64,000 bases of DNA from Candidatus Moranbacteria bacterium GW2011_GWE2_35_2- (lineage in GTDB: Bacteria; Patescibacteriota; Minisyncoccia; Moranbacterales; UBA9337): positions 141,501-205,500 of the forward strand of contig LBQD01000001.1 of the NCBI GenBank assembly GCA_000990585.1. Reading direction: 5' to 3'. This document shows, one piece after another, positions 11,499 through 62,552 of this stretch (position 1 is its first letter; the number at the start of each line of letters is the position of its first letter). The notes beneath the pieces were generated by a model. The model searched no databases. It was not told the DNA's origin and was given only the letters and a program-made list of their open reading frames with translations. Position numbers and translations under genes: made by a program.

Positions 11499-11589
11499 GC
11501 CCAGGTGATGGAATTGGTAAACATAACTAGCTCTTTGGGCTAGTGGGCAGGTAATGCCCCTGTAAGTTCGAATCTTGCCTTGGGCGCCA
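11499..11589 (+). tRNA. tRNA with a long variable arm (type II; Leu/Ser/Tyr class) and encoded CCA. The anticodon is unresolved because the anticodon loop is non-canonical.
   Basis: Acceptor GCCCAGG/CTTGGGC, D-arm ATG-GAATTGGTAAA-CAT, T-arm GTAAG-TTCGAAT-CTTGC, variable arm GGGCA-GGTAA-TGCCC, discriminator G, then CCA. The anticodon stem-loop ACTAGC-TCTTTGG-GCTAGT has C at position 33, or must be read as a 9-nt loop. Confidence 0.5.
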
Positions 11590-11593
11590 GTGA

Positions 11594-11671
11594 ACAGGAA
11601 TAACTCAGCCGGGTTAGAGTGCAACCTTAGCAAGGTTGAAGTCGCGGGTTCAAATCCCGCTTCCTGTTCCA
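11594..11671 (+). tRNA. tRNA (class I, 78 nt, encoded CCA) with apparent anticodon AGC and an A1:U72 acceptor start. Identity is uncertain.
   Basis: Acceptor ACAGGAA/TTCCTGT, T8 A9, D-arm ACTC-AGCCGGGTTA-GAGT, anticodon arm CAACC-TTAGCAA-GGTTG, T-arm GCGGG-TTCAAAT-CCCGC, discriminator T, then CCA. It sits 4 nt after the preceding tRNA. Confidence 0.5.
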
Positions 11672-21439: not shown

Positions 21440-22141
21440 TTATCCAATCAATGTTCCGTCAAATTTTTTCCCATCTAAATATTTATTTAAATTATCCAAA
21501 TCTTTCCCATTCATAATTGCGACTTGAAAGCCTTCTTTCTCTGCCATCTCCGCTGCAATTGGATCAAATGGGGTATTGAGTCCGGGGCTCCATTTTTTTT
21601 CAAACATATTGCGAAAATCTTTCCATGAAATATTTCTTATTTCTCGAGCAGTGAAATACTTTCTAGGATCCTTGTCATATACGTAGCTTATATTTGAAAG
21701 ATTAATGATTTGTTTTATTGCCATCTTTTTCGCCAGACTAACAGCAATATAATCAGTAGAATTTCCCGGCTTCCATCCGGAAGCTATCACAACCATTGCA
21801 TTAGAATTGATACATTCTTCGATTTTTTCCATACTGGTGATTATTTTCATATAAGCATTCTTATAGAAAATAGTTCGAACAAAATGCGCGTTCATTCTGG
21901 TTGCGTGTATTCCAATCCAATCTTTGTCTTCATCGGTAATTTCTCCAACTTCATCTGCTGCTGAAATATAATTACGCGCCAACTTTCCTCCTCCGACAAC
22001 CAAAATAAAACGAAAATCATCCTTTATTTTACTTTCAATTATCTTTTTGAAATCACGAACAAAAGCAACGTCTACTTCTTCCGGAACAACCAATGAACCT
22101 CCCAATGAAATGATAATTGTCTTTATTTCAGTTTTTTTCAT
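21440..22141 (-). CDS. pyrH: Amino-acid-kinase family protein, most likely UMP kinase (archaeal-like PyrH)
   Basis: IIISLGGSLV N-terminal kinase motif. VVGGGKLARNY (GGG loop). GWKPGNSTDYIAVSLA. Confidence 0.55.
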   Translation of the reverse strand: MKKTEIKTIIISLGGSLVVPEEVDVAFVRDFKKIIESKIKDDFRFILVVGGGKLARNYISAADEVGEITDEDKDWIGIHATRMNAHFVRTIFYKNAYMKIITSMEKIEECINSNAMVVIASGWKPGNSTDYIAVSLAKKMAIKQIINLSNISYVYDKDPRKYFTAREIRNISWKDFRNMFEKKWSPGLNTPFDPIAAEMAEKEGFQVAIMNGKDLDNLNKYLDGKKFDGTLIG

Positions 22142-23042
22142 AATTTATTTTTTTATTTTGAATGTTATATCCTGTTATAAGTAAGGCGGATGCGATAAAA
22201 ATTGACGAATATGTTCCAAATGATACCCCGATTAGTAATACTAGCGCAAAATCTTTGATTGATTCTCCTCCGAAAATATAAATTGCAAGTAAGGTTATAA
22301 TAACAGTGATTGAGGTATTGATTGAACGCACTAAAGTTTCATTTAAGCTGCGGTTTACTACGAGAGGAAAACTTTCACCCGAAGAATTTCTTAGTAAATT
22401 TTCACGAATTCTGTCATATACAACAATTGTGTCATGAACGGAAAATCCGAGAATTGTCAGAAGAGCTGCAATAAACGGAATACCAATTTCAGTCCCGTAA
22501 AAATGTCCGAAAATAGAAAATGCTCCAATTGTAATTAATACATCATGAATCAATGCGATAACCGCTCCCACTCCATATTTCCATGACTGAACTGGACGAG
22601 AAACCTTTCGAAAAGCAAAAGCAATAAAAGTCATAATGCCGGCAGTTGCCCAGAAAAGAGCCCAAAGTGAATTTTTTCGCAGTTCATTGGAGACTGATGC
22701 ATCTCGATAATTAACTTTTATCTGCGTTGCCTCGGGATATTTCTCGCTTATTTTTTCCCATACAGCTTGATTGGTGTCATCAGCCAATGAAGCGTAGCTT
22801 AGCAATAGAGAGTCCTCTCCCTTACCTTGAATTGTAAGGCTGTTGAGTTTTAATTCGTTTAATATTTCTAAAGTTTCTTCATTTGTGGGAATATTTTGAG
22901 AAAATTTCACCTCCATCACTGTTCCTCCTGTAAAATCAATTCCAAATCTGAGACCCCATACAAAAAGACTCACAATGCTTAATGTTGTTAATATTAATGA
23001 AAAAATATATGCATATTTGGTTTTTGAAATTATATTAATCAT
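22128..23042 (-). CDS. secF: Protein translocase subunit SecF
   Basis: Six-TM SecD/F architecture with a periplasmic loop. Immediately downstream of secD. Confidence 0.85.
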   Translation of the reverse strand: MINIISKTKYAYIFSLILTTLSIVSLFVWGLRFGIDFTGGTVMEVKFSQNIPTNEETLEILNELKLNSLTIQGKGEDSLLLSYASLADDTNQAVWEKISEKYPEATQIKVNYRDASVSNELRKNSLWALFWATAGIMTFIAFAFRKVSRPVQSWKYGVGAVIALIHDVLITIGAFSIFGHFYGTEIGIPFIAALLTILGFSVHDTIVVYDRIRENLLRNSSGESFPLVVNRSLNETLVRSINTSITVIITLLAIYIFGGESIKDFALVLLIGVSFGTYSSIFIASALLITGYNIQNKKINYEKN

Positions 23043-23058: not shown

Positions 23059-24756
23059 TCAATTATTTTTTTGAGTATCTTCTTTTTTTAATCCAACCAG
23101 CCATAGTTTATTTGAAATCCACTCACCCAAAATAAAATTTAATAATGTTCGGGAAATTATAATTGCTGTAAACATTGAAAGTAATACTCCAACAATAAGC
23201 GTTATTGCAAAGCCTTTCACGAATCCGGTTCCCAATTCAATTAAAATGAAAGATGTGATGATGGAAGAAAAGTTTCCATCGCGAATCGAAGTCCATGCGC
23301 GTTTGAATCCTTCATCCAATGCTCCTGTAATAGTTCTTCCTTTGCGAATTTCCTCTTTTGTTCGTTCAAAAATCAAAATATTCGCATCCACTGCCATTCC
23401 AACTGATAAAATAAATCCGGCAATTCCGGGAAGCGTTAGGGTGATTTGCCAAGGAGTAAGACCGGATAGTTTGAAAATAGATACCATTAAGGCGGCATAG
23501 ATTAATAGTGCTATTGAAGCAATTAATCCTAAAAATCTATAATATGCAATCATGAATAACATAACCAATCCGAGTCCGATATATCCAGCTTTTAAGCTTG
23601 TTATTAGGGATTTTTCTCCAAGAGAAGCATCTACGCTTTCTTGGCTCACCAAATTAATCGGAACAGGCAAAGCGCCTTCATTTAATCTTTTTACCAAATC
23701 TTTTGCCTCATCAAGAGAAAAATTTCCCGTAATTACCGCTTCGCCGTTTGTTATTTCCACTTGAACCGTAGGTGCACTAATGATTTCTCCATCCAAATAA
23801 ATGGCAATACTTTTGCCGATATTGTTTTTTGTGAGTTCGGAGAATAATTTTGTTCCCTCATTATCAAATTTCAACGCCACTTGAGGCTCGGAAAGTCCTT
23901 GGCTTGCAAATTCGACGGTGGCATTTTTCAAATTTTTTCCCGTAAGTCCGGTTGCTTCATATTTCAAATCCGCAAACATATCAATAGTTGCTTTGGCAAA
24001 AAGAATATGCTCGGCTCGCACTTCTTTTTCACCCCCTTCTTCGCGCGATTCCATTTTTTTGATAATATGCCACCCGTAAAGAGTTTCGATTAAATCGGGG
24101 TAGATTTGTCCGTTTTTGACGTCATCATTGAAAAGTATGGCATCAAATTCTTCAACAAATTCTCCTTTTTTCACAAAACCTAAATCTCCTCCCGCGTCTT
24201 TTGAGCCGGGATCTTGACTGTATTCTTTCGCTAATTCTTCAAAATTGCTGTTTTCCGCGAGTGCTTGTGCTAGAACATATTCTGCTTGTTTTTTTGATTG
24301 TTCATTGATCGGATCAAGCACGTTTTTTATTTTTTGATCATTCGGATCAATTTCCCTTTTGAACTCCAAAAGTGGAGTTTCTTTGATTAAATTCTTTGCT
24401 TGATTTATATCTTTTATTCCCGCCAATTCTACAATTAATCTGCGTTGTTCTCCGGATTTTGTCGTATAGATTGTCGGTTCGGCTACTCCAAAAGCATTAA
24501 CCCTTCTTTCAATCACGTCTTGTACCGCTTGCATTGATTCCTCAATTTTTGAGCTATCGATTTTACTCAAATCTGCATCGTATTCAAGATGAATTCCTCC
24601 TTGCAAGTCTAATCCAAGATTTATTTTTAATTTATTAATACTCTCATATATAGGAGAAATAAACTTAACCACGCGAGGATAAGAAACAATTCCGGCCAAA
24701 ACAGCCAGGATAATAATTGACGCGAATTTTATTCTTGTTTTTTTGATTACGTTCAT
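23059..24756 (-). CDS. secD: Protein translocase subunit SecD carrying an embedded parvulin-type PPIase domain in the periplasmic head
   Basis: SecD signature LGLDLQGGIHLEY and the C-terminal TM bundle. The internal segment ...SKDAGGDLGFVKKGEFVEEFD...LYGWHIIKKME has the parvulin GG-LG / GWHII signature. Confidence 0.85.
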   Translation of the reverse strand: MNVIKKTRIKFASIIILAVLAGIVSYPRVVKFISPIYESINKLKINLGLDLQGGIHLEYDADLSKIDSSKIEESMQAVQDVIERRVNAFGVAEPTIYTTKSGEQRRLIVELAGIKDINQAKNLIKETPLLEFKREIDPNDQKIKNVLDPINEQSKKQAEYVLAQALAENSNFEELAKEYSQDPGSKDAGGDLGFVKKGEFVEEFDAILFNDDVKNGQIYPDLIETLYGWHIIKKMESREEGGEKEVRAEHILFAKATIDMFADLKYEATGLTGKNLKNATVEFASQGLSEPQVALKFDNEGTKLFSELTKNNIGKSIAIYLDGEIISAPTVQVEITNGEAVITGNFSLDEAKDLVKRLNEGALPVPINLVSQESVDASLGEKSLITSLKAGYIGLGLVMLFMIAYYRFLGLIASIALLIYAALMVSIFKLSGLTPWQITLTLPGIAGFILSVGMAVDANILIFERTKEEIRKGRTITGALDEGFKRAWTSIRDGNFSSIITSFILIELGTGFVKGFAITLIVGVLLSMFTAIIISRTLLNFILGEWISNKLWLVGLKKEDTQKNN

Positions 24757-24802: not shown

Positions 24803-27478
24803 TTATTTTCTTCCGCAGCACTTCTTGTATTTTCTTCCGCTTCCGCACGGACACAAATCATTTCGACCGGGAATTTTTTCTACGCGAATAGGTTTTTGTT
24901 TAGGAGTTTCTCCTGATGCGTTGACGGATGCTGATAATTGCTGATTTTTTAAAGTTTGAAATTGTTTCACTTGCTCATCCGCTCCTTGAAATTTCCAATT
25001 TTCTTTTTTGTCATCAATTTGCGATTGTTCGATTGGACGCGCCAAAGTTATTTTGAAAATCGTATTTACGATCGTTAGATGAATATTTTTTATTAACTCT
25101 GTGAAAAGATTATAGGCTTCTTTTTTATATTCAATTAATGGATCGCGTTGTCCATATCCGCGCAATCCGATTCCTTGCCGTAAATAATCAATTTGATCCA
25201 AATGACCTGTCCAGAGAGTGTCAATTGTTTGCAAAATAATCATTTTTTCCACTTTACGCATATTTTCCACTCCGATTTCCTCTTCCTTTTTCGCATAAAC
25301 TTGTTTGGCTTTTCCCATTAAATAATCTAACATCTTGCTTACTTGAGTCGCATTGTCTATGCTTTTATCAGAGCCTATAATTTGAAGCTGTCTTTCGTCC
25401 GCGTCCGCCAAGGGAAAAATTCCTGAAATATCACTCATTATAGTTTTAATATCCCAAGGACAATCACCTTCTTTGCAACGGGAGGAAATAATCATTTCCA
25501 GCTCTTCGGAAATATATTGAAAAATATCATTGCGTGCGCTTGCGATTTCTAGAATTTTTCTCCGTTTGCGATAAATAACTTCTCGCTGTTTATTCATCAC
25601 ATCATCGTATTCCAAAACGTGTTTGCGAATATCAAAATTAAATCCTTCTATTTTTGATTGTGCATTTTCGATAGTACGGGAAATTATTTTATTTTGAATC
25701 GGTTGATCATCCGGCAATCCAAGGGTATTCATCATATTTTTCATTCGATCACCGCCAAAGCGACGCATCAATTCATCTTCAAGGGAAACATAAAATTGGG
25801 AACTTCCGGGGTCGCCTTGTCGTCCGGCGCGACCGCGAAGCTGATTATCAATTCGGCGCGCCTCATGCCGCTCTGTTCCGATAATAAAAAGTCCGCCCAA
25901 TTCGCGTACGCCCTCCCCTAGTTTGATGTCAGTTCCGCGTCCTGCCATATTTGTTGCAATTGTAACGGCGCCTTTTTGTCCGGCATCGGAAATTATTTGC
26001 GCTTCTTTTTCATGTTGCTTGGCATTAAGGACTTGATGTTTTATGTTTTCTCTTTCTAAGAGCTCACTGAGATGTTCTGACTTCTCAATTGCTACTGTTC
26101 CAACCAAGATCGGTTGTCCGGTTTGACTGATTTTTTTTATTTCCTCCACAATCGCTCCGAATTTACTTTTTTCGGTTTTATATATAATATCCGGCAAGTC
26201 TTTTCTTTGCGCATTGACATTTGTTGGAACTTCCACTACATCCAATTTGTATACCTTGGAAAATTCCTCGGCGCTTGTAGTGGCTGTTCCAGTCATACCG
26301 GCAAGCTTTTTATACATTCGAAAATAATTTTGAAAAGTAATTGTTGCCAAAGTTTTCGATTCGCGCTGAATAGCAACGCCTTCTTTTGCTTCAATTGCTT
26401 GATGTAATCCTTCACTATACCTTCTGCCCTCCATCAAACGTCCAGTAAAATCATCAACAATAATTACTTTCCCATCTTTGACTATATAATCTTTTTCTTT
26501 TTTAAAAAGAATTTCCGCTTTTAAAGATTGTTCCAAATGATGCACATAACCGATTTTTCCAGGTTCATATATATTACCTACCCCCAAAAGATTCTCCACT
26601 TTGGATATCCCATTGTCTGTAAGTGTAACCGTACGCATTTTTTCATCTACTATGAAATCATCCTTTTTTTTCAGGCGTGGAATAATTTGCGCAAATTGCT
26701 GATAGAGCTTGGTTGATTCTGTATCGGGAGCGGAAATAATTAATGGGGTTCGCGCCTCGTCTATTAAAATCGAATCAACTTCGTCAACGATTACATAATT
26801 AAAATCTCGCTGGGAATATTGATCCAGGCTATGTGCCATATTGTCCCGCAAAAAATCAAAACCGAATTCATTATTGGTTCCATAAGTAATATCGCACGCA
26901 TAAGCTTCTTTCCTTGTGATTGGAGAAAGATTTTCCATTTCCACACTTACTTCATTTGAATCAATTAGTTTCGGTTCATATTTATAGGAAGTTTCGTGCA
27001 TAATGCAAGCAGTTGAAAGTCCGAGAAAATTAAAAATAGAACCCATCCAATTACAATCACGTTTTGCTAAATAATCATTAACCGTCACAACATGAACGCC
27101 CCTACCAGAAAGCGCATTGAGGTAAATAGGCAAAGTTGAAGTCAGGGTTTTTCCTTCCCCGGTTTTCATTTCGGCAATTTTTCCTTGATGCAGAATTATT
27201 CCTCCGATCAGCTGAACGTCATAATGCCTCTCGCCAATAACACGGTGCGCTGCTTCGCGTACCACTGCAAACGCTTCCGGAAGAATTTCTTCGATGACAT
27301 TTTTCTCATCTGTCGAATTTTCTATCTTCTTTCTAAATTTTTCAGTTTTTTCTTTTAACTCTTCATCAGAAAGATGGGAAATTTTTTCATCTAAAGAATT
27401 TATCTTATCCACAATTGGCTGAAGTTTCTTTATCTCTCTTTCGTTAGATCCGAATAAGTTTCTAAACAATTTCATCAT
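24803..27478 (-). CDS. secA: Preprotein translocase ATPase SecA
   Basis: DEAD-like motor motifs (MKTGEGKTL, DEVDSILIDEARTPLIIS). C-terminal zinc finger CPCGSGRKYKKCCG. Confidence 0.95.
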   Translation of the reverse strand: MMKLFRNLFGSNEREIKKLQPIVDKINSLDEKISHLSDEELKEKTEKFRKKIENSTDEKNVIEEILPEAFAVVREAAHRVIGERHYDVQLIGGIILHQGKIAEMKTGEGKTLTSTLPIYLNALSGRGVHVVTVNDYLAKRDCNWMGSIFNFLGLSTACIMHETSYKYEPKLIDSNEVSVEMENLSPITRKEAYACDITYGTNNEFGFDFLRDNMAHSLDQYSQRDFNYVIVDEVDSILIDEARTPLIISAPDTESTKLYQQFAQIIPRLKKKDDFIVDEKMRTVTLTDNGISKVENLLGVGNIYEPGKIGYVHHLEQSLKAEILFKKEKDYIVKDGKVIIVDDFTGRLMEGRRYSEGLHQAIEAKEGVAIQRESKTLATITFQNYFRMYKKLAGMTGTATTSAEEFSKVYKLDVVEVPTNVNAQRKDLPDIIYKTEKSKFGAIVEEIKKISQTGQPILVGTVAIEKSEHLSELLERENIKHQVLNAKQHEKEAQIISDAGQKGAVTIATNMAGRGTDIKLGEGVRELGGLFIIGTERHEARRIDNQLRGRAGRQGDPGSSQFYVSLEDELMRRFGGDRMKNMMNTLGLPDDQPIQNKIISRTIENAQSKIEGFNFDIRKHVLEYDDVMNKQREVIYRKRRKILEIASARNDIFQYISEELEMIISSRCKEGDCPWDIKTIMSDISGIFPLADADERQLQIIGSDKSIDNATQVSKMLDYLMGKAKQVYAKKEEEIGVENMRKVEKMIILQTIDTLWTGHLDQIDYLRQGIGLRGYGQRDPLIEYKKEAYNLFTELIKNIHLTIVNTIFKITLARPIEQSQIDDKKENWKFQGADEQVKQFQTLKNQQLSASVNASGETPKQKPIRVEKIPGRNDLCPCGSGRKYKKCCGRK

Positions 27479-59843: not shown

Positions 59844-61169
59844 TTATTTCCTTTCTTCTAATTTAATTTGGACTTCTTTTATTTCGCCTTTGTGCCAAAA
59901 TTTTACTGCAATATTTTCTCCTACTTCATGTTGAGAAACCAAATCAGAAAGAGTCTTTTTCTCGGTTATTTTTTCTTCTGCTATTTCCAAAATTATATCA
60001 TTCTCTACAATCCCCGCTTTGTCTGCCGGAGAAGCCGGTGTTACTGCTAAATCTGTGATTTTTTCTCCACGAACCACTAAAGCGCCGTAGTCAAAAGGCA
60101 AATTATTTTCTTTTTGTATTTCTCCATTAATAATCGCGTATCTTACCCCAATAAAAGGCACAGAAATTTTTCCATTTTCATTGATTTGATCCAAGGTTTT
60201 TTTCACGACATTTACAGGGAGAGCAAATCCGATATTTTCCGCTCCTTGCGCCACTGCCACATTAACTCCGATAACATCTCCGTTTATATCCAAAAGTGGT
60301 CCGCCAGAATTGCCGGGATTTATCGCCGCGTCAGTTTGTATTATTCCCATAAGTTTTTCAGAATCTCCCATTCCCGAACCGGCAACAATATCTCTCTTTA
60401 ATCCAGAAATTATTCCCAAACTCACACTATTGGAAAATTCTCCAAGCGGATTTCCGATAGCAATCACGGATTGTCCTACTTTCAAATTATCCGAATCTCC
60501 CAAATCAATAGCGGAAAAATTATTTCCTTCTATTTTTAATAAAGCGATATCCATAGTCGGATGCCTCGCAATAATAGTTGCTTTATGTTCTTGGCTGTCA
60601 CTTGTGATAACAGTATATTCCGCATTTTCGTCACTAACTACATGCTTATTTGTCACGACAATTCCATCCATCGAAACAATAAAACCGGATCCGCCACCAA
60701 TTTCCATTTTTTCCGTAGACCCACTATTACTACTATTATCATCAAATGGAGAAAAAAACGGCCTGAACCCAAATGGGTCATCAAAGAAACTTCGAAATTT
60801 TGGAACATCTTTAGAAACTATAATACTCACAACGCTAACATTAGCCTTCTCTACGGCATTTACCACAGAAGATTCCTTATCTGAAATAGAAATAGTTTCG
60901 GACTTAATCCCTTTTATTTCTTCTTTCTTATTAAAATATTTTGCTGTCAACCCTCCAGATAAAAATCCGAACAGCGCACCAAAAAACGAAGAAAAAAATA
61001 TTAACAAAATAACCGCAAAAAATATCTTTTTCTTTGTTCCCGTGCAACATTCCAGTTCGTCTTGAATATTTTGCATCTTTTTGTCTTCCGGTTTATCTAT
61101 ATCAACAATACTATTAAACATATTTTCAATATTTTCTTTTTTTATTTTTTCTTTTTTCATATAAAACAA
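59844..61169 (-). CDS. htrA: Serine protease HtrA/DegP (S1C) with a PDZ domain and a long low-complexity N-terminal linker
   Basis: Catalytic motifs TNKHVV, DIALLK and [10 protein letters not shown]-terminal PDZ. Confidence 0.85.
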
Positions 61170-61257: not shown

Positions 61258-61440
61258 TTATTCTTCGACTGAAATAGCATTTACCGGACAACTTTCCGTT
61301 GCTTCTTGACAATTACAATCTTCACAATTTTCCGAAATAACATGAGATTTTCCATCCTCAATCTTAAACACATTCGGGCAAAGAGCTTCACACGTTCCAC
61401 ACCCGATACAAAGATCCTCACTAACTATTGGCTTTGACAT
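61258..61440 (-). CDS. 2x[4Fe-4S] ferredoxin
   Basis: CIGCGTCEALCP and CEDCNCQEATESCP: two CxxCxxCxxxCP motifs in 60 aa. Confidence 0.8.
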   Translation of the reverse strand: MSKPIVSEDLCIGCGTCEALCPNVFKIEDGKSHVISENCEDCNCQEATESCPVNAISVEE

Positions 61441-61487: not shown

Positions 61488-62552
61488 TTACAAAATAAAA
61501 CTATCTTCATTTTGTTCAAATTCACGCAAATCACTATCTGAAAATTCAACTGATCCGGAAGATAAATCCCAAAAATATCCATCAATAAAAATCCAAACTT
61601 TTCTTTTTTTCATTTCTTCATTTAACCAATCATTCAAATTAGTTTTAGGGCGAAAGATTTGCCTCACTCTAATTAGCTCTTTGTCATTTTCAATCTTCTT
61701 TTCCTCCACTTCTATGATATGATAGCCTAATTCACTTTCTATTACGCCGCTTCTACCCCCTTCTTTCAATGAAAAAGATGTCTCCGCCAATTCATCCAAA
61801 ATTTGCTCTCGCGAAAACCACCCCAATTCTCCGCCCTGCTCAGCTGTTTCTCCTTGTGAAAATTCCTTTACTATGGAAACAAAATCCCCTCCATTAGACA
61901 ATTTTTCCCAAGCTTGTTGCATCCTATCTTTTTGTTTATCATTTTCTTTTTGATTATATTCCTTTTGAATAATTTTTTCCATCTCATCGCGATACAAACT
62001 TGGACGGACAATCTTCTTTTTAAAATCTTCCATACTCCATCCGTATAATTTTTCCAAATTGTTTTTTATTTTTTCTTCATTTCCAAACTCTTCAATTTTT
62101 CTGGAAACGTTCTGATCAACATCCTCTTTTGAAATTATTATTTTATTTTCTTCTGCCACTAATTCAATAACTTTATCTGCTATCAATTTATTCAAAATAT
62201 CTTTTTCTTTTATTTTTAAACGCTTTTTTCCGTCTTCCGTAGAGAAATCAACACGCAAACCTTCCTTGGAAAAATCCTGATTTTCATAAAAATTTTTAAC
62301 CGATTGCAAATCTTCATTAAGATTTGACAAACTTATAAAATGATAATAATCCACTGCTACAGCGGGAAAATGAATATAAGCAACTATTTTTTTCGCAAAA
62401 CTATTTTCATAATTTCGATAAATAAAAAAACTTAACAAAACAAAAATAAACAGAATAAAAACGCCGAAAGACATGGCTGCCGTCCACCAGCTCACTTTTT
62501 TTTCCTTTTTTTCCTTCCCATTCCTGCTCATTAATTTTTTATAAATTACCAA
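61488..62552 (-). CDS. Parvulin-type peptidyl-prolyl isomerase (PrsA/SurA-like), membrane-anchored
   Basis: N-terminal TM. PpiC core GGELGWFSREQILDELAETSFSLKEGGRSGVIESELGYHII. Confidence 0.75.
   Translation of the reverse strand: MVIYKKLMSRNGKEKKEKKVSWWTAAMSFGVFILFIFVLLSFFIYRNYENSFAKKIVAYIHFPAVAVDYYHFISLSNLNEDLQSVKNFYENQDFSKEGLRVDFSTEDGKKRLKIKEKDILNKLIADKVIELVAEENKIIISKEDVDQNVSRKIEEFGNEEKIKNNLEKLYGWSMEDFKKKIVRPSLYRDEMEKIIQKEYNQKENDKQKDRMQQAWEKLSNGGDFVSIVKEFSQGETAEQGGELGWFSREQILDELAETSFSLKEGGRSGVIESELGYHIIEVEEKKIENDKELIRVRQIFRPKTNLNDWLNEEMKKRKVWIFIDGYFWDLSSGSVEFSDSDLREFEQNEDSFIL

Follow-up and report, generated by a model that had tools for sequence, protein, structure and literature searches.

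The protein-translocation subunit SecD of Candidatus Moranbacteria bacterium GW2011_GWE2_35_2- contains a parvulin-type peptidyl-prolyl isomerase (PPIase) domain within its extracytoplasmic P1 region, and the strands of that domain are most likely in a circularly permuted order. The gene lies in a 64,000-nucleotide stretch of the genome of this organism, referred to here as the window; coordinates are those of the window, and residue numbers (aa) are those of the 565-aa protein. We think it likely that this protein is a functional SecD that has acquired a PrsA-like, circularly permuted parvulin at the loop joining the P1 base to the P1 head, and that the acquired domain is, by prediction, a translocon-tethered foldase/holdase. 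An earlier note on this DNA, made from the letters alone, had described the gene as a SecD with an embedded parvulin domain. Both halves of that description are borne out, the first by the NCBIfam secD profile TIGR01129 and the second by two Pfam Rotamase families (E 3.7e-20 and 2e-18). The parts of the gene are as follows:

23059..24756 (-), secD open reading frame (ORF) as given in the ORF list, 565 aa, inserted parvulin domain included
24682..24750 (-), N-terminal transmembrane (TM) helix, aa 3-25, from the AlphaFold2 (AF2) helix at aa 3-25 and alignment to 3AQP and 5XAN
24355..24534 (-), N-terminal part of the P1 base, SecD_1st, aa 75-134 (Pfam PF21760, E 1.9e-16), ending in the strand LLEFK
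23947..24357 (-), whole insert relative to Thermus thermophilus SecDF, aa 134-270, with variable linkers on both sides (phmmer alignment to 3AQP)
24037..24336 (-), parvulin body, aa 141-240, containing D182, L192, F200, F204, T225, Y227 and H230
23995..24030 (-), probable displaced parvulin strand beta1, aa 243-254, EKEVRAEHILFA, which contains H250 and pairs with the GWHII strand as a hairpin
23662..23952 (-), P1 head subdomain, aa 269-365 (Pfam PF22599, E 2.8e-31, profile positions 19-114 of 114)
23116..23628 (-), TM helices 2-6, aa 377-547 (Pfam SecD_SecF_C and AF2 helices), with D457 in MAVDANILIFER

The ORF encodes a bona fide SecD. TIGR01129 matches it at 386.4 bits, against a cut-off of 244.4, with profile positions 1-397 aligned over aa 47-539, and Pfam recognizes Sec_GG, SecD_1st (aa 75-134), SecDF_P1_head (aa 269-365) and SecD_SecF_C (aa 367-542). 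The topology is that of a SecD: TM1 is followed by a large P1 region, composed of base and head, and by five further TM helices. Because the N-terminal TM helix spans aa 3-25, the residues up to aa ~376 are extracytoplasmic. A Foldseek comparison of the SecD model with the SecDF structure 5XAN returned an E value of 7e-22. The motif MAVDANILIFER aligns with AAVDGNVLSFER of T. thermophilus and provides the membrane-embedded Asp of a SecD, D457, which is invariant in 42 homologues (alignment A1). We take D457 to be the counterpart of T. thermophilus D340, the proton-path Asp reported by Tsukazaki et al. 2011. Every feature of SecD that could be checked computationally was found in the protein, which is 100% identical to the deposited SecD of the same organism. 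A chimeric ORF, or an artefact of assembly or annotation, was ruled out, as the identical protein is present on 16 contigs and the architecture is recurrent. Rotamase and SecD Pfam domains occur together in all 120 of the 120 best homologues, which share 65-100% identity and come from many independent assemblies.

The parvulin match falls between SecD_1st and the P1 head in the chain. Rotamase_3 (PF13616) covers aa 151-236 (E 3.7e-20, 73 bits; cut-off 22.5) and Rotamase (PF00639) covers aa 152-235 (E 2e-18, 67.6 bits; cut-off 21.7). These scores greatly exceed what chance would give. The similarity also reaches far beyond the short GWHII peptide, confinement to which would, according to the earlier note, have refuted its reading, and the peptides quoted there were all located in the protein (SKDAGGDLGFVKKGEFVEEFDAILF from aa 185, LYGWHIIKKME from aa 226 and EVRAEHILF from aa 245). 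In the phmmer alignment to 3AQP, query residues 43-133 pair with T. thermophilus residues 31-116 and query residues 271-554 pair with residues 160-438, leaving an insert of 137 aa (query 134-270) versus 43 aa in T. thermophilus SecDF. The insert sits where the P1 base passes into the P1 head, at a loop that measures 10-25 residues in insert-less SecDs of the Candidate Phyla Radiation (CPR). The domain is extracytoplasmic, following TM1 and preceding TM2; its long N-terminal helix (aa 141-166) and a variable C-terminal linker tether it to the beginning of the P1 head. Its assignment to the periplasmic head was correct as far as the extracytoplasmic P1 region is concerned, but the domain stands at the base-head junction and not inside the head fold.

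The fold of the insert was examined by structure prediction. When modelled alone, the domain returned a predicted local distance difference test (pLDDT) score of 92.5 and a predicted template-modelling (pTM) score of 0.85, bearing out the inserted rotamase fold; in the full-length model, the mean pLDDT is 75, that of the insert 83-92 and the pTM 0.42. The modelled domain has the four-stranded antiparallel sheet packed by helices that defines a parvulin. Its body comprises the long helix alpha1 (aa 141-166), two short helices, a strand at aa 191-196, a helix at aa 202-208 and strands at aa ~218-224 and 228-240, the last of which carries GWHIIKK. The insert's sequence most resembles those of PrsA and of the P2 domain of SurA. 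A SurA_N or related chaperone module was sought with Pfam, and none matched the SecD protein at E values up to 0.1. Because the flanks of the domain are SecD P1 segments, without a chaperone module, the insert is not a chaperone of the PrsA, SurA or PpiD type.

The earlier note had called the parvulin signature complete and had taken EVRAEHILF for a second, partial element. Pfam coverage begins at position 16 of 97 in PF00639 and at position 33 of 116 in PF13616. Because coverage starts this late, the first parvulin strand (xxRAxHIL, carrying one active-site His) is absent upstream of the body, and the signature is not complete in that sense. The strand that immediately precedes the insert, LLEFK, is part of the P1 base; SecDs conserve it whether or not they carry the insert. 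The xxRAxHIL motif is found downstream, as EKEVRAEHILFA, with H250 placed 20 residues after the His of GWHII. Compared with the canonical order, beta1-alpha1-alpha2-alpha3-beta2-alpha4-beta3-beta4, no beta1 precedes alpha1 and the HIL strand follows beta4. In the full-length AF2 model, the strands at aa 228-240 (GWHIIKK) and 243-254 (EVRAEHILFA) form a hairpin, and the domain-only model contains the same hairpin as strands 95-107 and 110-121 of its own numbering, with pLDDT of 95-98. These observations suggest that EVRAEHILF is most likely the parvulin domain's own beta1, displaced to the C-terminal side, and that the domain is circularly permuted. The peptide is present as noted, but it is best read as this displaced strand and not as part of a second domain.

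Moving the strand in silico to a position before alpha1 extended the PF13616 coverage from 33-114 to 14-114, a gain of ~19 positions, and raised the score from 76.7 to 85.5 bits, compared with 78.2 bits for a reversed-strand control and zero gain for the native N-terminal flank. In a phmmer alignment, the trailing strand pairs with the own first strand of Bacillus subtilis PrsA, GKIRASHILVAD, at a weak local score that is illustrative only. The loop between the two hairpin strands has a constant length in 109 of 117 close homologues and is 11-14 aa longer in the other 8, with the strands fixed, and therefore behaves as a surface hairpin loop. Among 192 short inserts, 179 have no HIL strand before the body, keep the body His and have an HIL strand after the body; both His are lost in 7, and one is lost in at most 6. 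Five of the six short inserts with a single loss have long loops and may be misses of the search window. Within the strand, H250, I251 and L252 are invariant in the 42 homologues. A tandem-parvulin origin, by truncation at both ends, seems plausible because the insert is colinear with the P1 body and the first P2 strand of Escherichia coli SurA (GFHILKV...EVHARHILLK). Duplication followed by truncation is the classical route to circular permutation. A literature search returned no paper that pairs 'circular permutation' with 'parvulin'.

The residues of a parvulin active site can be recognized in the insert. From motif comparison with the Pin1 and PrsA sequences, we place D182 one residue before the position of Pin1 C113, as in B. 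subtilis PrsA, and take H250, H230 and T225 to correspond to Pin1 H59, H157 and T152. L192, F200 and F204 would likewise correspond to the proline pocket of Pin1, L122, M130 and F134. By the same comparison, the basic phosphate-binding loop of Pin1 has no counterpart in the insert, and the domain would therefore be of the non-phospho-specific PrsA/Par10 kind. An Asp variant at the position of D182 is mentioned for PrsA (bioRxiv 10.1101/2024.09.05.611430). Judged by sequence, two His on neighbouring strands, an Asp/Cys position, a Thr/Ser position and a proline pocket are all present.

Across the 42 homologues, D182 is invariant and H230 is at least 90% conserved. In a larger set of 256 fused single-unit sequences, D182 and H230 are found in 91%. 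The strand could be aligned in 216 of these, 208 of which have His at the H250 position, and was unaligned in the other 40. Column conservation in the 42 homologues amounts to 0.76 for the parvulin body and 0.79 for the strand; the linkers reach 0.54-0.58, and the P1 head and membrane domain 0.83-0.86. The columns of the domain (0.76-0.79) are thus better conserved than those of the linkers, the pattern of an independently folded domain on flexible tethers that is under purifying selection.

The distribution of the insert was surveyed by a scan of GTDB species-representative genomes, in which SecD was extracted from each of 80 loci and the insert sought. Carriers are Moranbacteria/Moraniibacteriota, Kerfeldbacteria, Komeilibacteria, Magasanikbacteria and further Patescibacteria. 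The insert is absent in this survey from Doudnabacteria, Portnoybacteria, Nealsonbacteria, Paceibacterota and other SecDs of 400-470 aa. Hundreds of independent assemblies contain the fusion, and all named carriers that were found are CPR/Patescibacteria, although the trait is not general to CPR. When 1.84 billion cluster representatives were searched exhaustively by HMMER, with aa 75-290 as the query, 41 clusters were found at E <1e-30, and SecD segments and a parvulin were combined in ~95 of the 150 best clusters (50% identity). Several metagenome-assembled genomes (MAGs; L004, L006, L010, L014, L019, L043, L046 and others) bear labels such as 'uncultured Bdellovibrionales', 'uncultured Gammaproteobacteria', 'Candidatus Saccharibacteria' and 'Bathyarchaeia archaeon', and encode a SecD with the same insert. 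The encoded proteins share 49-70% identity with the Moranbacteria SecD, and for this reason the labels look unreliable.

A longer form of the protein was found in Peregrinibacteria (L061, L065, L078 and L080) and Uhrbacteria (L063 and L064), with further examples in P0140, P0160, P0164, P0202 and others. These SecDs measure 655-830 aa, or ~1,030-1,075 aa when fused to SecF, and the named members of the branch are all Peregrinibacteria or Patescibacteria. Their inserts contain, in order, a degenerate body, an HIL strand, a catalytically intact body and, usually, an unrecognizable strand. His occupies the H230 position in none of 24 first bodies, whereas the His of the HIL strand is present in 22 of 24 and that of the second body in 20 of 24. 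Pfam recognizes the second unit as a complete canonical Rotamase (profile positions 1-97), and in 141 long inserts HIL precedes the catalytic body and never follows it. In the long form, a degenerate, permuted outer domain may enclose a canonical parvulin within its hairpin loop. This reading is suggested by the pattern of retention, in which the intact strand goes with the intact body that follows it, and the degenerate first body with the degenerate last strand. The hairpin loop proposed as the site of nesting is the one that varies in length in Moranbacteria.

The location of the domain suggests what it might do. The P1 head binds the emerging polypeptide and swings under proton flow from one conformation to another (Tsukazaki and colleagues, summarised in PMC9643414 and PMC9987972). 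Moreover, parvulin proteins contact SecD in other bacteria: PpiD touches SecD's periplasmic domain and works together with SecDF at a late stage of translocation (PMC9643414), the parvulin domains P1 and P2 of SurA lie on the P1 head of SecDF in five of five AlphaFold models (PMC9987972), and the parvulin-domain lipoprotein Mpn444 of Mycoplasma pneumoniae cross-links to SecD (bioRxiv 10.1101/2024.09.05.611430). In the chain that we envisage, the parvulin body (alpha1 through the GWHII strand) would come first, then a short, length-variable hairpin loop, and then beta1, lying beside the GWHII strand. Because the P1 head grips emerging polypeptides at the outer face of SecYEG, a parvulin tethered there would encounter substrates at the channel exit, and could act on them as a foldase (prolyl isomerase), as a holdase of unfolded segments, or as both. 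It would be an equivalent, in cis, of PrsA at the Gram-positive membrane-wall interface and of the contacts that PpiD and SurA make with SecD/SecDF in trans. On this view, the coupling of translocation to prolyl isomerization that had been proposed for this protein would be plausible.

Several observations weigh against this proposal, or against parts of it. The foldase/holdase function, which we consider likely, is one that we infer by analogy, in line with the PpiD-SecD and SurA-SecDF contacts, and the full-length model (pTM 0.42) does not fix where the domain lies with respect to head and channel. As regards the permutation, that the trailing strand fills the canonical beta1 slot is something we infer from secondary structure, sequence logic and co-retention. 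The gain in PF00639 score on de-permutation was unspecific (+3.1 bits versus +2.4 bits for the reversed-strand control), and the argument above uses the PF13616 result only. Some relatives keep the domain and have lost both His, namely L033 (Moraniibacteriota), L058, P0059, P0062, P0154 and P0184, in which the two motifs read, for example, GLFIIK with VAMIAF or AYYVLK with LSQIEL. In one Moranbacteria MAG (L057:6001-7359, Moraniibacteriota UBA11696), aa 162-262 have been lost in frame; aa 1-161 are joined to aa 263-559, and the parvulin body and strand are cleanly gone. Unless this is an assembly error, the insert is dispensable in that organism. Because some relatives have lost both His or the whole insert, catalysis is not universally retained, and neither catalysis nor the domain itself is indispensable everywhere. 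The parvulin domain of PpiD is reported to be inactive, and parvulin domains with intact His, such as those of SurA P1 and PpiD, can be catalytically silent.

Such silent domains are the model for the main rival explanation, in which the inserted parvulin is a non-catalytic surface for substrate binding or chaperoning that enlarges the grip of the P1 head, its active-site residues being kept for the stability of the fold. The His-less variants are what this explanation would lead one to expect. In the lineage of the window itself, however, conservation extends to the Asp, to both His and to the hydrophobic pocket, and the pattern of residues resembles that of catalytically active PrsA and not that of PpiD. 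Moreover, the two-unit forms retain one intact catalytic set (second-body His in 20 of 24 and the His of the preceding strand in 22 of 24). We regard a purely non-catalytic role as possible but rather unlikely. A different objection concerns the strand itself: EVRAEHILF could be a vestige of a mostly deleted second parvulin, as in a SurA-like P1-P2 tandem, in which case the first domain would be truncated and three-stranded. The colinearity with the E. coli SurA P1 body and first P2 strand fits this idea, as does colinearity with the Bacteroides fragilis PPIase 8hm4 (GFHIIQLIEKRGDRINTRHILLKPK). A vestige would be expected to drift, yet H250, I251 and L252 are invariant and the His is lost together with the body His. 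AF2, moreover, pairs the strand with the GWHII strand at a pLDDT of 95-98, and the central position of the sheet has no other candidate strand, LLEFK upstream being part of the P1 base and shared with SecDs that lack the insert. A tandem origin is compatible with present integration of the strand into a single domain. We judge the vestige explanation to be quite improbable.

It is less probable still, and to our minds hardly credible, that the domain has a role unrelated to folding, either docking a partner (the PpiD-like protein at 61488..62552, a component of the cell wall or S-layer, or a host surface) or regulating the swing of the SecD head. CPR cells have unusual envelopes and episymbiotic lifestyles, and the region that connects base and head is a hinge in published SecDF structures, with the domain situated on one of the two connections. 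Where the domain lies with respect to the channel is likewise left free by the model (pTM 0.42). Against such a role, there is no linked partner gene, no parvulin ORF having been found within 6 kb of secD in the 80 loci, and conservation is centred on catalytic and proline-pocket residues, which pure docking would not predict. The tethered foldase/holdase remains the reading that we prefer, and a more elaborate version of it can be conceived. In this version, SecD would be a foldase and hand-off device powered by the proton-motive force, with capture, isomerization and release timed by the F-form/I-form cycle and with the parvulin carried through the swing of the head; the permutation, which would place both chain ends on one side, and the nested Peregrinibacteria forms would be mechanical adaptations, and the domain would be the first natural circularly permuted parvulin. 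We hold this fuller picture to be doubtful.

Among characterized proteins, the CPR SecD resembles canonical SecD/SecDF (T. thermophilus 3AQP/5YHF, Deinococcus radiodurans 5XAN and E. coli 5MG3) in its TM1, P1 base, P1 head, TM2-6, MAVDAN Asp and adjacent secF, but no solved SecD contains a parvulin, and the base-head junction measures 43 aa in Thermus versus 137 aa here. The PrsA lipoproteins (B. subtilis 1ZK6/4WO7, Listeria 6XD8 and Bacillus anthracis 6VJ6) are separate proteins with the canonical strand order, in which the parvulin is embedded in an N/C chaperone domain and the protein dimerizes, whereas the SecD insert is permuted, is covalently part of P1 and has no chaperone module. The PpiD-YfgM and SurA systems of proteobacteria likewise consist of parvulin chaperones that touch SecD at the outer face of the translocon, and the CPR protein resembles a covalent version of them. 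They are, however, separate proteins that make transient, non-covalent contacts, whereas the CPR fusion contributes one small domain and lacks the tetratricopeptide-repeat partner YfgM. Mpn444 and Mpn436 of M. pneumoniae offer a parallel from another reduced genome, as surface parvulin proteins that lie near SecD by cross-linking and are proposed to fold emerging chains (bioRxiv 10.1101/2024.09.05.611430), but they are large, separate, trimer-forming lipoproteins whose parvulin is outside SecD. The SurA-like PPIase of B. fragilis (8HM3/8HM4) is a soluble periplasmic chaperone unrelated to SecD; besides an N-domain, it has a second parvulin body, which is degenerate. In 8HM4, the leading P1 strand lacks His (TQVEVQIITQQ), and GFHIIQLIEKRG is followed by DRINTRHILL and then by the degenerate body. 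To judge from these letters, the pairing of a body with an HIL strand that follows it may already exist in a solved structure.

A full-text literature search found no paper describing a SecD-parvulin fusion. Public annotation names these proteins simply SecD, although both domains already appear among the precomputed Pfam hits. What the parts are, and that they are associated in function, was known before; no description was found of the covalent arrangement, the permuted topology or the spread across several CPR classes. What is gained is a new arrangement of known parts and a case of domain permutation, and the understanding of the roles of SecD and of parvulins is unchanged. The hand-off from the SecDF motor to folding helpers is currently argued from cross-links, low-resolution electron microscopy and AlphaFold models. 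A widely conserved, natural fusion of a parvulin to SecD P1 is 'Rosetta-stone' evidence that both activities belong together at that place, and it offers a compact, one-chain system for the structural study of the hand-off. The fusion may also exemplify how genome-reduced CPR bacteria economize on envelope proteostasis.

The genes that surround secD, and a second parvulin gene located elsewhere in the window, are these:

22128..23042 (-), secF, encoding the partner subunit of SecD, directly downstream of secD (TIGR00966, 275 bits)
24803..27478 (-), 891-aa ORF directly upstream of secD, as given in the ORF list
61488..62552 (-), membrane-anchored PpiD/PrsA-like parvulin protein (Pfam Rotamase, E 2.6e-17)

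The 891-aa ORF reads as secA when its translation is inspected by eye, with motifs of a SecA-type ATPase and a C-terminal CPCGSG...KKCC zinc finger. The ORF at 61488..62552 had been pointed out as a separate, membrane-anchored PpiC-type protein, and its Rotamase match agrees with that. SurA_N_3 scored 26.8 bits on this ORF, slightly below the cut-off of 27.2. By BLASTP, the protein shares 26% identity with the SecD insert over 96 aa (E 6e-07), an alignment that runs through the trailing strand. No HIL strand precedes its parvulin body, and a His-less ELIRVRQIF follows GYHIIEV, colinear with the SecD insert. This protein may itself be permuted in the same way, or it may be a relative of the insert's donor. 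De-permutation brought it no meaningful gain in score (66.4 to 67.0 and 62.5 to 64.2 bits), its trailing strand being too degenerate for a judgement. Whether a parvulin gene is kept beside secD in insert-less CPR genomes was addressed by the 6-kb neighbourhood search, which found no parvulin ORF within that distance of secD in 15 insert-less loci and no second one in 65 insert-bearing loci.

Two ORFs lie just downstream of the second PPIase gene, at 59844..61169 (-) and 61258..61440 (-), one small, Cys-rich and ferredoxin-like and the other membrane-anchored. By eye, the membrane-anchored neighbour is HtrA/DegP-like, in that it has the trypsin-like motif GNSGGPL and its C-terminal region is PDZ-like, and the surroundings of the second PPIase could be a small neighbourhood for envelope protein quality control. 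In another part of the window, two odd tRNAs are adjacent, at 11499..11589 (+) and 11594..11671 (+). The first is called Lys(UUU), 91 nt, by ARAGORN and matches the Rfam tRNA model at 39 bits in the sensitive search only; its variable arm is long (class II-like) and its anticodon loop is irregular, with C at position 33 or a length of 9 nt. The second has the anticodon AGC, read as Ala, and an A3-U70 pair instead of G3:U70.

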